A stretch of DNA of 64,000 nucleotides, taken from positions 25,474 to 89,473 of IMG/VR virus record IMGVR_UViG_3300009011_000012. One strand, written 5' to 3'. Under the pieces are notes generated by a model. That model had not been told where the DNA came from, did no database searches, and was given only the letters and a program-made list of their open reading frames with translations. A program made the position numbers and the translations under genes. The DNA comes from a virus. Of this stretch, positions 8,404-25,598 are shown in pieces (positions within the stretch are counted from its first letter, which is position 1; every line of letters starts with the position of its first letter).

Positions 8404-10014
8404 TTATCGCATAAGGATTGGTTTACCGATGATGCGGCGCGCTGAACCGGTAGGGCACACTGCCCATTCGACTTGCCAGTAATCGCTCTCCAGTTGAGCC
8501 ACAGTGATTACAAATGGCTCTTCGCCCTGAGACTTATCTCGGGGCTTTACCAGTGCACCTGCTGAATAGAAGCGCTCCAGTAATTCGGTCATGCCTTTCG
8601 TGAGTGACTCTTGGGTAACACCGTCCGGCTCGTGCTTGATAGCTTCAGCGAGCTCATAGAAGTTACGGGCGATGGCATTCATCAAGGAGGAGACGTGTTG
8701 GAAGCGAAGGTAGTTCTTTTTGGTAAACGTGGTCAGCGCGTCATCAATATAAACATCACCGCTGGCCGACACTTTTACAGGATTGATTCGTGCCGTAACG
8801 AAAGCTTCCAGGTCGATAGCATCGAGGTTTGGAATCTTGGTGATGTTTTGACGATCGATAATGCCTCGGGATGTCCCCGCAGGGGAATAATGCCAGCCAC
8901 CGACATCTGGTACCATCGCAACGCCTTTCGCTTTAGCTACAAAAGCGTCACAGCTAATACCGAAGACAACCTGCATGCCAGTTGCACTGTCTTTACAGGA
9001 ATAAGGGAAGTAGTAGCGTGCGGGCTGGTGTGAACCACCAAAGCCATGACCTTTGGCTTCGGTGATCGCAGCTGCAGCTGTCTGATTGCCTGAAAGATCA
9101 TAGAAGAAGTCGACGCGAACTGCTTCTGCCAGGTCCTTCAGTGCAGCTAGTACAGTTGAGTCGTAACAACCCAGCGAGAGAATGGCAGTTACATTGATCG
9201 GGGCTTGTTCCAGAATAGCCAGTGCTTTCAGGTATTCTTCAGCAGTAACTTTCGAGAACGTGCCATCAGAACCACCCACGAACGCCACATCTGTGAACGT
9301 AATGCCTGTGAACAAATCATCTTTATCATCACTGGTGATCACGCAACCTAGGCGGGTAGACATGCTTTCCAACATGGTTTGCAACCATGCTGGTTGGCCC
9401 ATATCGTTGACGGCCTCTGGGTTGAAAGAAACCTGATGAGTTTCGAGTTGTTCCACAGAACCATCCGATTGGGTTTCTTTTAGCGTCAGGTTGAGAAGGT
9501 CGCTATCCTCATCACTATCAAGCGAAATTGTACGATTGCCTGAAGCCTCGCCGTCTTTGATGTAAATGATGGCCAGTTCGCCATCCTTAAGTGCTGGTGT
9601 TTCGTGGGGACCAAACTGAGCCCCTTTTAACACGTACTCACCCAGAACGGTGAAGGATTCGCCTTCTTCAACCTGGTTTTCTTCCCCAGAAGCCTTAGAA
9701 ATGATGATGCCCGGGACCTTCATATCTGAAGGGCAAACGCGCACTACATAACCATCGCCACCTTTAACCGCCTGCTGGACGTGACGGAATGGCTCGAATG
9801 CCGAACCCAGTCGAGGATGGATTGGTGTTCCAAGCACATCCTTATAGTTCGATGCTGTGACCTGTAGCACCTTACCCGGCGCGCCACGGCGAGAAATCAC
9901 CAGACCAGCGAAAACGGAGCTGCCGCCGCTGCCGGTGGATAGGGTCGCATCAGCGTTAACAGGCATAATGCCGACGCCAGCTGCTTGCCCTACTGAATAT
10001 CCGATCTTATTCAT
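8404..10014 (-). CDS. Contractile tail sheath protein (gp22-like)
   Basis: SPAG, INP, KHEP and P-x-GSARRI sheath motifs; start at MNKIGYSVG after an AGGGG RBS. Confidence 0.9.
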   Translation of the reverse strand: MNKIGYSVGQAAGVGIMPVNADATLSTGSGGSSVFAGLVISRRGAPGKVLQVTASNYKDVLGTPIHPRLGSAFEPFRHVQQAVKGGDGYVVRVCPSDMKVPGIIISKASGEENQVEEGESFTVLGEYVLKGAQFGPHETPALKDGELAIIYIKDGEASGNRTISLDSDEDSDLLNLTLKETQSDGSVEQLETHQVSFNPEAVNDMGQPAWLQTMLESMSTRLGCVITSDDKDDLFTGITFTDVAFVGGSDGTFSKVTAEEYLKALAILEQAPINVTAILSLGCYDSTVLAALKDLAEAVRVDFFYDLSGNQTAAAAITEAKGHGFGGSHQPARYYFPYSCKDSATGMQVVFGISCDAFVAKAKGVAMVPDVGGWHYSPAGTSRGIIDRQNITKIPNLDAIDLEAFVTARINPVKVSASGDVYIDDALTTFTKKNYLRFQHVSSLMNAIARNFYELAEAIKHEPDGVTQESLTKGMTELLERFYSAGALVKPRDKSQGEEPFVITVAQLESDYWQVEWAVCPTGSARRIIGKPILMR

Positions 10015-10079
10015 TGCACTTACCCCTTCGGCGTGCGATTTGAACTTAAAACATTTCCCCCTCATGCGAGGGAGGAAAA

Positions 10080-10358
10080 TTATTCGCCTACGGTGAAGGT
10101 GTCACCCACGGTAGCGTCTTGTTTTTCGCTATCCACGCTGACGCCCTCTACGGTAACTACTGCCGCTTTAACCACAACCTTATGAGTAACGGTGTGGCCA
10201 CCATCAGCAGTTGTAATAGTCAGTTCGGCTTCGCCAGGACCTTCTGCTTTACATTTATTGTTTTTACCCACAGATACGACCGCAGGGTTACTTGATACGA
10301 CAGTAATGGCCTTGTTGGTGGCGTTTTCAGGGAAAACGGAAACTTTGATATCTGGCAT
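10080..10358 (-). CDS. Circularly permuted Ig-like (Big_2) virion decoration protein
   Basis: PENATNK...SSNPAVVSV...ITTADGG is the Big_2 core; the usual N-terminal segment (VEGVSV...VGDTF) lies at the C-terminus; AGGAG RBS. Confidence 0.85.
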   Translation of the reverse strand: MPDIKVSVFPENATNKAITVVSSNPAVVSVGKNNKCKAEGPGEAELTITTADGGHTVTHKVVVKAAVVTVEGVSVDSEKQDATVGDTFTVGE

Positions 10359-10410
10359 TTTGTTCTCCTAACGCCCCATAAGGGGGCGTTGTAAATAGAC
10401 GTTTTATGGC

Positions 10411-10492
10411 TTACTCAATTGCGAACGAGTCACCCTCAGATAACTCCTGGCCGTCAGATGAAACTGAAACGCCAGTTACTCCGACTTTTTTT
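10411..10492 (-). other. Predicted -1 programmed frameshift (A AAA AAG) and 24-aa capsid C-terminal extension
   Basis: GAA AAA AAG just before the gp23 stop; the -1 frame reads VGVTGVSVSSDGQELSEGDSFAIE*. Confidence 0.8.
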
Positions 10493-12218
10493 CTTCTTCA
10501 TCCGTGGTTTCCCCTGGATTTGATGCTGAGGAGTTAATCTGGCCTGTCAGCATGTTGATCGCGCCTTCTTTGGAGTGCGTCAGACGTAAACGTGCGAAAT
10601 AGTTTTCACCGTTACGAGGGTGAACATCATTGATTGCTGAACCCCACAGAGTTGTACGGTTAACCAGGCTCGGGTTGGTTTCGTGGACGTAAGGAATTGC
10701 TGCTACTGCATCACCGGCGATCAGACCTGCTTTGCCGATATCGTTGCCGCGACCGTAGAAATAGATGTCATCCAGGCCAAGGTCATAACCCTGTTTCTGG
10801 AACTGCTCGCAAACTGGAGTAGGGACTTCGTAAATGCGGATAGATCCAAAAAGGGTACCGATGTACTGAATGTACGGAGATTGGACATAACCCGGGGCCA
10901 GCTGGAAATGCTGAGGTGGTAGTGAGCGCAGGAAGTTAGCTGCATCGCCACCAGCGAAGCCACCGCGAATACCTGAAGCCAGGGTGCGGTTAGCCATATC
11001 CTGGGACAAAGCATTCACAACATGGCGCATCAGACTTACCCATGATTCATAGCTTTGTGCTTCTGGAAGAGCAGCATCGAATTCACGGCCATACACGGTA
11101 TGGAAAACCAGCGTGCGAAGGCGCATTACATCTTGTTCATGGCTGAGCCACTGGCGCATTGCTGAGAACTGAGTCGCAGCCATGTTAATACCAAATTCAC
11201 GGCTGGCATCAGACGCGGACATGATGGTGTGTTCAGATGCAACAACATACTGAGACGGCTTAACTTTGTAGTTACGCATCGCCTGGTTGATGACGGGGAT
11301 CAGGTTAGGAGCGCGCTCGATGTTGATCTCAACCTGTACTGCAAGCTCGGTACCTTCCGCTGGTGCATCGGTAAAGGTGATATCAATTACACCGGTGTCG
11401 TATGCCACCTTCGCAGTAGCAGCAAACAGATTGCCTTTGCTATCCGAACCGTTGAAATACAGATTGCCGTCACCATCGTCAACTTTCGATGGTTTACGAT
11501 TGATTAACAGCTTGTTATAGCCAGCACGGATAGGGCAGTTTTGTCCTTCAAAGTCCTTAATATCGAACTTGAAAACTTTGGTTACACCATCGCCTTTTGC
11601 CGCCAGCTGGTACAGTCGTTTCATCTGACTGTAGACGCCAGCGCTTTGCATATTCAATTCATCGCCTGGCTTGAAAGTGCCAAAATTGGTGCCTGCGATG
11701 TTGATGAGTTCGTAGATGTCTGATTCATCACGTTCGCATGGGATGAAAGTGCAGGCATCGCTTGTGGCTGCGCCCAGGGCAGCTGGCAGAATCAGCGCTG
11801 CAAATTGAGCGATGCGCATAACACCATCAGAACTGCGCATGGATTCAGCAGCGGACTCGAACATCGCCTTACCGGTGCCGCTATGCTTATCTTTAGCGCA
11901 TTCTGTCATAAGGTTTTCGAGCGCGACGTGACAGTTTGCCAGCACGTCTACAGCCGGGTAACGGCCGTGCTCTTGTTTATACTGGTGCATAGCCATAGCC
12001 CAGCCACCTGCAATTTGCAGGGCTGCATCAGGATCGACACCTTCGAACATTGGCACCTTTTGCACTGCTGAGGTAAGGCTCGCCGTCATGGCGGCTTCAT
12101 CGGCAATCAAATTGCCTGCACCGTCGGTGATTGGTTCGATAGTCATCGCCATGACGGAAGCCGCCCGACTCATCATTTCTTTCTCGCGTTTGCGAGCTGG
12201 CTGAATATCTTTATTCAC
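10476..12218 (-). CDS. Major capsid protein (gp23-like)
   Basis: Size, MFES processing motif, P1 gp23-like sequence, heads the 23-22-21 operon. Confidence 0.9.
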   Translation of the reverse strand: MNKDIQPARKREKEMMSRAASVMAMTIEPITDGAGNLIADEAAMTASLTSAVQKVPMFEGVDPDAALQIAGGWAMAMHQYKQEHGRYPAVDVLANCHVALENLMTECAKDKHSGTGKAMFESAAESMRSSDGVMRIAQFAALILPAALGAATSDACTFIPCERDESDIYELINIAGTNFGTFKPGDELNMQSAGVYSQMKRLYQLAAKGDGVTKVFKFDIKDFEGQNCPIRAGYNKLLINRKPSKVDDGDGNLYFNGSDSKGNLFAATAKVAYDTGVIDITFTDAPAEGTELAVQVEINIERAPNLIPVINQAMRNYKVKPSQYVVASEHTIMSASDASREFGINMAATQFSAMRQWLSHEQDVMRLRTLVFHTVYGREFDAALPEAQSYESWVSLMRHVVNALSQDMANRTLASGIRGGFAGGDAANFLRSLPPQHFQLAPGYVQSPYIQYIGTLFGSIRIYEVPTPVCEQFQKQGYDLGLDDIYFYGRGNDIGKAGLIAGDAVAAIPYVHETNPSLVNRTTLWGSAINDVHPRNGENYFARLRLTHSKEGAINMLTGQINSSASNPGETTDEEEKKSE

Positions 12219-24398: not shown

Positions 24399-25598
24399 TC
24401 ATGCGCCACCTTTTTTAATATATTCCATAAACATCTTTTCCGCTTGCGTCGGTGCTGTTCCAGCCATCACTAGAGCGTCAATAAACGACTGCTTCTTCAG
24501 TGCGAACTGATCTGCTAATTGCTGCTTGAGCATCTTGTTCTTTTCTTTCTCTTTCTGCAATGCTGCCTCCTTCTCGGCGGCACGCTTTTTCTGAGTATCA
24601 GAGAGTTTTCTGGCTTTGGTGAGCTGCGTCCGGAGCTGTTCTATCTTCCCAGAGCCCTTAGCAAGCTTCGAGCTCAGCGCGGCCTGGCGCTTTTGGTAGA
24701 TATCCCACTCGCGCTTAGCCGCGGCAACGTTCGTTTTGGCGTTACGGTTACGGCTAAATTCTTTCTCATCTGTTTTGCTGAAGTGCTGTGTGGTGCGGCG
24801 CTTATCATCGCCAAAGGCAATCTGTGTCGCCGCTTTCTGCATGGCACGGGCAATACTCAGTTGCCAGCTGGACGACTGCAACCGCGTGAGGGAGTGGATA
24901 ACATGCTTACACGCTACACCCTGTAACTTGGGGTTTTTAATTTTGGGGTAGGCGTACTCTTTCGGCGGTGCCAGCGCGAAATTACCCGCCGTGGCAATAT
25001 AGCGATACCAATATTGGTGACGGCCGCAATCGCAGTCGAACGACACTCGACCAGCGCAAAGAGCCTTCGTAACCTTGATCCCGGCCTTCTCGTCTTCTGC
25101 GATGTCCTCCACCAGCTGATCCCATTCCTCAAAACGGAACTTGACCAAGTGGTGCTGGTGGGCCGATTTATCAGAAGCCTCAACGCGGATATTGATCATA
25201 TTGTGCTTGAGAGACAGCGGAACCGCACGCTTAATGCCTGAGCCGTCGTCTACAGCGTTATTGGCACGCTTAATATCTATGGCCTGGCTGGAAGCCACCA
25301 GCTGCGCATAAGTGATACCAGCGGTTTTATTATCGAACTTCTCCCGCGTCTTGCCACGCTGCTTTTCAAATCCCTTCAGGTCATCGAGTGTGAAAAACGT
25401 GCCTTCTTTCTTTTTCCCCAGCTTCAGGATGTCGTCAATAGACCGGTTCTTGAGCCTGCCAGGGGTTAATGTCCGATGGGCAGAGCGACGCTTGCGCGTC
25501 TGCTCCTTGCGTATCAGGTCGAATACCTTATTGAATGCCTTTGGTGATAGCCCATCAGTGATATAGCGGCCATTGTCATTTTTGAGGAATTCAGCCAT
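24399..25598 (-). CDS. gp25-like tail protein with SWIM-type Zn finger
   Basis: CDCGRHQYWYRY...ACKHV; synteny. Confidence 0.75.
   Translation of the reverse strand: MAEFLKNDNGRYITDGLSPKAFNKVFDLIRKEQTRKRRSAHRTLTPGRLKNRSIDDILKLGKKKEGTFFTLDDLKGFEKQRGKTREKFDNKTAGITYAQLVASSQAIDIKRANNAVDDGSGIKRAVPLSLKHNMINIRVEASDKSAHQHHLVKFRFEEWDQLVEDIAEDEKAGIKVTKALCAGRVSFDCDCGRHQYWYRYIATAGNFALAPPKEYAYPKIKNPKLQGVACKHVIHSLTRLQSSSWQLSIARAMQKAATQIAFGDDKRRTTQHFSKTDEKEFSRNRNAKTNVAAAKREWDIYQKRQAALSSKLAKGSGKIEQLRTQLTKARKLSDTQKKRAAEKEAALQKEKEKNKMLKQQLADQFALKKQSFIDALVMAGTAPTQAEKMFMEYIKKGGA

Follow-up and report, generated by a model that had tools for sequence, protein, structure and literature searches.

How does the product of a small immunoglobulin (Ig)-like gene, which lacks the first two strands of its fold, relate to the phage capsid gene that precedes it, which ends in a candidate frameshift site followed by a short open frame resembling just those strands? 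This question is raised by a locus in a 64-kilobase (kb) stretch of viral DNA (henceforth the window; positions 25,474 to 89,473 of the IMG/VR record IMGVR_UViG_3300009011_000012), which belongs to a complete virus record of 89.5 kb bearing terminal repeats and which its gene content marks as a P1/D6-type phage-plasmid (myovirus). The genes of this region are all encoded on the minus strand in the order capsid, Ig gene, and tail sheath, and the feature in question runs on that strand from 10491 down to 10080, precisely where a preliminary description, made from the letters alone, had placed it. On balance, we favor the explanation that the capsid extension and the Ig gene each encode part of a single Big_2 domain, and that this split domain clips a small decoration protein onto the virion.

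The major capsid protein gene (10476-12218, minus strand), delineated as an open reading frame and identified by tblastn, codes for a 580-residue homolog of P1 gp23, with 80.6% identity to the major capsid protein of phage D6 and 46% to P1 gp23 itself. Its C-terminal linker is acidic and Ser/Gly-rich and terminates in KKSE, with the 3' end of the gene reading GAA GAA GAA AAA AAG TCG GAG TAA on the minus strand. Three codons before the capsid stop lies the slippery heptamer A_AAA_AAG (10485-10491, minus strand) in the X_XXY_YYZ phase that a -1 shift requires, which bears out what the preliminary description had said of the gene ending and its -1 site. The heptamer overlaps a run of seven A, both in the window and in D6-type loci, and is by itself not unusual (23 copies in the window versus 17 expected). 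It is present at the capsid stop in every one of the 41 D6-like loci that we read (nine comprising eight plasmids and D6, 22 IMG/VR contigs, and 10 metagenome contigs); in D6 the capsid gene ends GAA AAA AAG TGA. A heptamer of this type, in an exact and conserved phase near or at the zero-frame stop, is a classic ribosomal site. A slip at this point would open a -1 frame of 24 codons and TAA (10411-10485, minus strand), with the product after the slip being VGVTGVSVSSDGQELSEGDSFAIE, followed by the TAA at 10411-10413; it corresponds to Big_2 strands A and A' and the first residues of B.

This assignment is based on a donor profile for which 300 repeats were taken from tandem Big_2 arrays, the arrays having been found using the 92-residue Ig protein as query. 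The extension aligns to profile positions 4-28, i.e., strands A, A', and the start of B, and has the top score in the window, in agreement with its earlier description as the first segment of a Big_2 domain. Among the 2,422 open frames (approximately 104,000 residues) covered by a six-frame scan of the window, the extension emerges as the best match (18.2 bits), the tail of the Ig protein as the second (14.9 bits), and the next scores 5.6 bits; none of 500 shuffles matched the score of the extension, and the same holds for the last 27 residues of the Ig protein. With a profile of the full unit, the two donors cover positions 2-28 and the Ig body positions 27-88, with no other match in the window. 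The pattern of substitution is likewise that of a -1-frame coding sequence: the 30 variable sites among seven distinct Escherichia-type extensions are distributed 10/5/15 over -1-frame codon positions 1/2/3, and the close relatives of the window among assembled contigs differ in the extension at 10414, 10426, and 10438, all three being synonymous third positions (the changes being GAG to GAA, TCG to TCA, and TCT to TCC). The length of the extension varies from 24 codons in the window to 35 in the D6/Escherichia type, and the window and D6 versions have about 9 of 24 aligned residues in common, as judged by eye. These features support the extension being a true coding sequence that is predicted to be attached to the capsid. 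The D6 record annotates it as orf50, a free-standing hypothetical gene of 34 residues starting from GTG (L001:5698-5802), and the RefSeq plasmid records give it no annotation; neither accounts for the probable trans-frame capsid product. As a separate observation, one IMG/VR contig (L029:2345-2500) shows a length change of one base in the A-run where the 35-codon extension is Lys-rich, at its end; the change affects the last residues only and leaves the donor part intact; either the basic tail of the Escherichia-type extension seems to be dispensable or the change is a sequencing error.

The next gene (10080-10358, minus strand), identified by its Pfam Big_2 match, encodes a 92-residue protein that aligns with Pfam Big_2 (PF02368) over positions 23-79 of 79 (24.1 bits; cut-off 22.8), and in a scan of the whole 89.5-kb genome it is the sole Big_2 match, at 25 bits. 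No complete Big_2 (1-79) is present on one chain, and positions ~1-22 are found instead in the capsid extension and in the tail of the Ig protein. Residues 1-63 (10170-10358, minus strand) constitute an acceptor body with Big_2 strands B to G, as delimited by Pfam and the structure model, and residues 64-92 together with the stop (10080-10169, minus strand) a six-residue linker and a second donor with A, A', and the start of B, as delimited by the profile. Hence, the earlier claims that this gene encodes the remainder of a Big_2 domain and carries its own copy of the donor both stand, with the body covering Pfam positions 23-79 only and the last 27 residues being the second-best donor match in the window. 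In structural terms, the tail stops where the capsid donor stops, and its VGDxF.V core is the best-conserved contiguous stretch of the Ig protein. Its match to the donor profile is comparable to that of the capsid donor; in the window, the tail has the better score of the two with the full-unit profile and the poorer one with the donor-only profile. It is retained in every lineage seen, including those discussed below with an in-frame capsid donor, such that in all family members seen one chain combines an incomplete Ig-like fold (27-88) with a donor (2-28). Furthermore, the 92-residue protein is collinear, without a break, with 840 register-shifted tandem Big_2 repeats (B-G, then the A/A' of the next), the body-to-tail spacing differing from theirs by a median of -1 residue (5-95% range -4 to +3); the representative search behind this repeat set yielded giant tandem arrays only, and small register-shifted Big_2 proteins would escape it. 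Thus, the split of a Big_2 domain between the capsid extension and the next gene is supported by the sequence comparisons, as is a consistent polarity, with the capsid donor entering the Ig body and the Ig tail the next body.

The preliminary description had proposed as a check the co-occurrence in relatives of the slippery site, the extension, and the Ig gene, and the site, an open donor-like -1 frame, and the Ig gene are found together in 41 of the 41 loci. The Ig proteins of the Escherichia-type loci are 42-51% identical to that of the window, and the D6 layout comprises a 35-codon open -1 frame, a hairpin, a ribosome-binding site, and a 92-residue gene of the same architecture. The Ig gene is present in 120 plasmid records, with identities of 100% and 98.9% on plasmids of Enterobacter hormaechei and Enterobacter sp.; the phage collection gave no match to the window at the DNA level.

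A more telling arrangement, which emerged from a search with more divergent family members, is seen in two IMG/VR loci (L065 and L066), with capsids 76% and Ig proteins 50% identical to those of the window. Here, the donor is the zero-frame C-terminal end of the capsid, located at the junction where the -1 product would join, and after it come a stop, a hairpin, a ribosome-binding site, and an Ig gene of 96 codons extending from strand B to the donor tail. The protein collection furnishes a second capsid type with an in-frame donor (P0186); a tblastn search of the plasmids with the Ig protein P0168 (E 1e-8) returned no match. In a maximum-likelihood tree of 42 capsids, constructed with the C-terminal appendages excluded, the split-Ig phages are recovered as a single clade (100/100), with the in-frame lineage falling inside a set of frameshift lineages; four of the nine rows labeled as the frameshift type (P0191, P0192, P0196, and P0201) were judged from the end of the capsid protein alone, and two of these four come from contigs equal in length to those of the Ig proteins P0168 and P0170. 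Within the clade, the capsid linkers are variable and terminate in KK, KKSE, or KKSQ. This phylogeny is most simply read as the descent, from a frameshift-dependent ancestor, of a lineage in which the tag moved into the main frame. Given that such a move makes sense only if the shifted product was made and used, it supports the translation of the extension.

Outside this clade, the Ig gene is missing from P1, from Cronobacter phage JK004, and from 15 genome contigs with 41-66% identical capsids (Pantoea, Citrobacter, Xenorhabdus, Kluyvera, and others), all of which have the sheath gene directly after the capsid gene; 14 of these 15 contigs are also without a slippery site at the capsid end and without a donor. 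The fifteenth, from Rosenbergiella metrosideri (L037:4644-4920), has a capsid gene ending in G_GGA_AAG TGA with approximately 73 open -1 codons, which code for a low-complexity sequence rich in Ala, Lys, Asp, and Gln; recoding at the capsid end may therefore carry other payloads. A GK or KK ending is shared by further capsids of this family (P0223-P0227 and P0231). A Serratia fonticola-type lineage (P0221 and P0222; L145:2501-4480 and L146:2501-4474), on a separate branch of the capsid tree, displays a complete in-frame Big_2 domain at the C-terminus of the capsid, with no separate Ig gene, no donor elsewhere, and the sheath gene directly next. This indicates that the capsid C-terminus is a display site in the phage family, of which the split form is one particular solution. 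Other Big_2 arrangements occur in unrelated phage contigs (L109:2851-3630, L128:1441-2220, L087, and L102): in one, a complete Big_2 is encoded in a frame that carries on from the gene upstream and may represent a classic frameshift extension, and in another a complete Big_2 is inserted into a sheath-like protein.

We then considered what structure models say of the split. The Ig protein of the window, modeled with AlphaFold2 using 16 homologs, shows strands C to G only, with strand B and the tail unassigned as strands. Nevertheless, its residues 1-68 superimpose on residues 44-111 of 7quz (Z 8.0, root-mean-square deviation [rmsd] 1.9) and residues 1-66 on residues 178-246 of lambda gpV (Z 7.8), in both cases over strands B to G. 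The capsid and Ig genes of L065 share a frame with two TAA between them, and reading each TAA as a residue gives a chain of donor, 14-residue spacer, and Ig, i.e., an artificial single chain of natural sequence. Its model has a mean predicted local distance difference test score (pLDDT) of 69.7, with the spacer scoring below 50. Three short strands are formed by the donor, strand B is present as a strand, and the Ig tail is without strands. Residues 3-122 of this chain superimpose on residues 22-112 of 7quz over 91 residues (Z 12.5, rmsd 1.8), matching a complete Big_2 from A to G, and the model also matches residues 158-246 of lambda gpV (Z 11.1). The modeled capsid segment fills the canonical A/A' slot and the Ig's own tail is left unpaired, which is consistent with docking. 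Together with the lineages in which the donor is fused in frame to the capsid, this model provides the strongest of the new evidence.

Based on these observations, we propose a mechanism in three steps. In the first, a minority of ribosomes or transcripts would slip by -1 at the terminal A_AAA_AAG of the capsid gene, and a 24-residue tag would replace the last two capsid residues on the flexible acidic C-terminal linker; we strongly infer such a slip and consider it very probable. That only a minority of subunits would be tagged, as the preliminary description had it, is plausible for this phage; in the in-frame relatives, on the other hand, every subunit is tagged. In the second step, the tag would provide the strands A and A' missing from the Ig protein, and the Ig body (B-G) would fold around it, being held on the head non-covalently. 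Docking by such strand complementation is likely in light of the sequence, the phylogeny, and the model. In the third, the bound Ig protein would expose its C-terminal copy of the tag, which would fill the slot of another Ig molecule, such that head-to-tail Ig chains would grow from each tagged subunit and the slip rate would set the number of chains per head. This last is the least secure step, and we advance it tentatively, at somewhat less than even chances.

The case for chain growth is primarily topological. In Ig domains, strand A begins at the pole opposite to the end of strand G; with the poles opposed and a linker of just six residues, the canonical insertion of the tail in cis should not be possible, and the short linker and tandem-array spacing would together direct the tail to the slot of a different Ig molecule. 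Given a canonical donor tail, tandem spacing, and a sole Ig-body acceptor in the genome, open head-to-tail chains would be a natural consequence. The fuller picture of open-ended fibers nucleated by the capsid tag, each amounting to a tandem Big_2 rod nicked once per domain, is slightly more doubtful than chain growth as such. Of the interpretation offered in the preliminary description, the extension, the split, the second donor copy, and the polarity have held up, while polymerization into a fiber remains a plausible conjecture.

Several alternatives concern how, and whether, the tagged capsid is made. The evidence bears on the protein product and not on the mechanism of the shift, and transcriptional slippage, with an extra A in the seven-A run found in the window and D6-type loci, could contribute and give the identical protein from one inserted A. 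It would also accord with the lack of a conserved RNA stimulator downstream of the slippery site among the lineages compared. The local folds have z-scores of -2.65 in the window (over the 73 nucleotides after the site) and -2.67 in D6, and of -1.9 and -0.7 in other lineages; the minimum-energy fold in the window is a hairpin beginning right at the site, which differs from the stimulatory hairpin previously proposed (CTGGC..TCAG/CTGA..GCCAG), and the latter, showing no conservation in relatives, is unsupported. Upstream, no conserved Shine-Dalgarno-like element was seen by eye in the alignment of the relatives. However, efficient bacterial transcriptional slippage usually requires runs of about nine or more, and the phase of the heptamer is conserved, though slippage of the RNA would not need it. 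The Escherichia-type loci, moreover, place the zero-frame stop directly after the heptamer, an arrangement that favors ribosomal slippage. As the main source of the tagged capsid, transcriptional slippage is hence improbable. Much more improbable still is that the -1 frame is an untranslated, decaying relic of a former capsid-Ig fusion, with the Ig protein acting alone: a 24-codon open frame is not long by chance and the heptamer is common in the window, but the donor profile score is far above the rest of the window, the substitutions track -1-frame codon positions, and the site and donor character persist across lineages with Ig proteins 42-51% identical to that of the window. Nor does it fit with a derived lineage having moved exactly the donor segment into the capsid frame, or with an Ig body devoid of two strands of its fold. 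We rejected, as having the slightest chance of all, a continuous capsid-Ig polypeptide made by ribosome hopping or stop read-through across the gap. In the window, a GAG before the extension stop and another in the ribosome-binding site, 40 nucleotides apart, would allow a hop that lands in the Ig frame, and the shared frame of the L065 genes would permit read-through; yet D6 does not preserve matching codons for take-off and landing, the gap (25-52 nucleotides) and the frame relation differ between lineages, every Ig gene comes with an ATG and a strong ribosome-binding site of its own, and two consecutive TAA are poor read-through sites.

A different kind of alternative accepts the tag and replaces the chain with a single layer of decoration, in which the tag docks one Ig protein and the tail caps its own slot, either strained in cis or in a closed antiparallel swapped dimer. 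Such capping would keep the incomplete fold soluble until the capsid tag displaces the tail, comparable to the type V pilins, which have a self-complementing monomer form (PMC13655056). In the best model of the Ig protein alone, the tail has a pLDDT of 82-94, so it may pack on the body, and by geometric reasoning an antiparallel side-by-side dimer requires a short linker only; in the in-frame relatives, with a tag on every capsid subunit, one Ig protein each would coat the head. Against this, the canonical A/A' profile of the tail, its direction, and its tandem spacing point to binding in trans rather than to a reversed cis cap, strand pairing of the tail is absent in both models, and a displaced tail would be free to invade another Ig molecule anyway. 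We regard a single layer as rather unlikely, though a more serious contender than slippage of the transcript. Certain other considerations weigh against the split-domain mechanism as we propose it. The shifted product and the Ig complex are predictions from sequence and models, and the split-Ig phages form one clade, so that the co-occurrence counts as one evolutionary event. The lack of a conserved stimulator and the potential contribution of transcriptional slippage belong here too. With respect to the models, the Ig protein alone gave one confident model (pLDDT 90.7) and four others at 62-66, and in the confident one the well-scored tail is without strand pairing. The L065 model is of an artificial chain with a modest mean pLDDT, and its 21-row alignment has no homologs over the donor; AlphaFold, moreover, tends to complete known folds. 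Finally, the results fit an open polymer, a closed antiparallel swapped dimer, or a self-capped monomer, and unlimited self-polymerization in the cytoplasm would be odd for a virion protein.

The surroundings of the Ig gene show further regularities. Downstream of it, the tail sheath gene (8404-10014, minus strand) was recognized by homology to P1 gp22, and homologs of the gp23 capsid, gp22 sheath, gp21, and pmgG occur in the same order as in the P1/D6-type structural module. A hairpin with an 8-base-pair stem and a 5-nucleotide loop (10370-10390, minus strand) lies directly before the ribosome-binding site AGGAG of the Ig gene (10365-10369, minus strand; read from the sequence), and a second one lies between the Ig and tail sheath genes (10057-10075, minus strand), at a position kept in relatives. 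Both of these inter-gene hairpins are GC-rich and without a U-tract, and the relatives keep them with changed stem letters; P1 (L002) bears a similar hairpin between genes 23 and 22. They are possibly RNA-stabilizing or attenuating elements that set the capsid:Ig:sheath ratios.

The sheath protein itself might provide another docking site. In the split-Ig clade, the sheath proteins have an insert at one site that is missing from the Ig-less relatives; in the window, it is short (9637-9681, minus strand; located by alignment), and relatives carry a donor-like segment there. The insert of L065 (L065:3340-4020) scores 13.6 bits on the donor profile, on par with the capsid donor of the same locus, and the Escherichia-type insert (e.g., L001:6192-6830), absent in L006 and L017, scores 3.5-7.5 bits; that of the window is not significant against this profile (166 of 500 shuffles being as good). 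These scores suggest that, in some lineages, the tail may offer the Ig protein a further attachment site.

Individual elements of this system have precedents. In phages T7 and T3, the minor capsid protein 10B arises by -1 slippage close to where the major capsid gene ends, such that a minority of subunits get a C-terminal surface extension; Fraser et al., in 2006, are said to have described the addition of Ig-like domains to phage structural proteins by programmed frameshift. The present locus likewise has a -1 slip site at the capsid gene end, and Ig-like domains are a common payload of such extensions. However, unlike 10B and the frameshifted Ig extensions, which add a whole appendage or domain, here the extension adds two strands and the remainder comes from a separate gene. 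SpyTag/SpyCatcher, an isopeptide-locked system engineered from a CnaB2 domain, is comparable in that a peptide tag representing a strand of an Ig-like fold docks on the rest of the domain; in this case, the split is natural, with no evident covalent lock and a tag of two strands. The Serratia fonticola-type capsid belongs to the same family and likewise bears this kind of domain at its C-terminus, differing in that the domain is complete and covalent, with no frameshift, separate Ig gene, or spare donor.

A solved structural precedent for the docking step comes from the baseplate of phage Tuc2009, where the C-terminal hairpin of BppU completes a β-sheet of the BppA sandwich to form a titin-Ig-like composite (PDB 5E7T; PMC4742702). 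In both instances, a short C-terminal segment of one structural protein would complete the Ig-like sandwich of another; the Tuc2009 pair differs in being in the baseplate, in involving no frameshift, in having an acceptor without a second donor and hence no chain, and in belonging to another fold family and phage group. The statement in the preliminary description that no split-Ig system had been described was accordingly too strong, although for capsids none was found in the open-access literature. For the chain, a parallel is offered by the type V pili of Bacteroidia (FimA and Mfa1), in which a C-terminal donor fills the groove left by the missing N-terminal strand of the next subunit, giving a non-covalent head-to-tail polymer (PMC13655056). 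The Ig protein would share with the pilins a C-terminal donor for a missing N-terminal strand, and in the pilins a self-complemented monomer precedes the exchange. In them, the N-terminal strand is removed by proteolysis, whereas here the strands are absent from the gene, and the fold, the location, and the nucleator (a capsid subunit) are different, with the polymer in our case being hypothetical. Chaperone-free donor-strand polymers include the archaeal cannulae (PMC12518558), and in these, as in the chaperone-usher pili, a strand of a neighbor completes an incomplete Ig-like fold; the chaperone-usher pili differ in that an N-terminal donor replaces a missing last strand with the aid of a chaperone and an usher. 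No chaperone-like gene turned up in our Big_2 scan, which was not a search aimed at chaperones. P1 is reported to be without decoration proteins (PMC9024508). In the open-access literature, we found neither a capsid tag that completes a separately encoded Ig protein nor a virus protein that combines an acceptor with a donor. The split-domain capsid tag is well supported and, to our knowledge, undescribed for capsids.

By analogy with Ig-like decorations of other phages, the purpose of the Ig decoration is likely to be weak adhesion to surfaces or carbohydrates. If the proposed split is correct, it would represent a new mode of attachment, with the shell contributing only two strands as a tag and the decoration protein docking there by completing its fold, and it would offer a small natural tag-and-catcher pair for capsid display. 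It would also account for unannotated features of a common group of Enterobacteriaceae phage-plasmids and provide a case of recoding that sets the stoichiometry of a surface appendage. Were fibers to form, the frameshift rate would set their number, with few long ones in this phage and many short ones in the in-frame relatives, and in some relatives the donor-like sheath loop would nucleate the Ig protein on the tail as well. Should the chain model prove right, these phages would possess a pilus-like donor-strand polymer, of which we have found no description in a virus in the literature.

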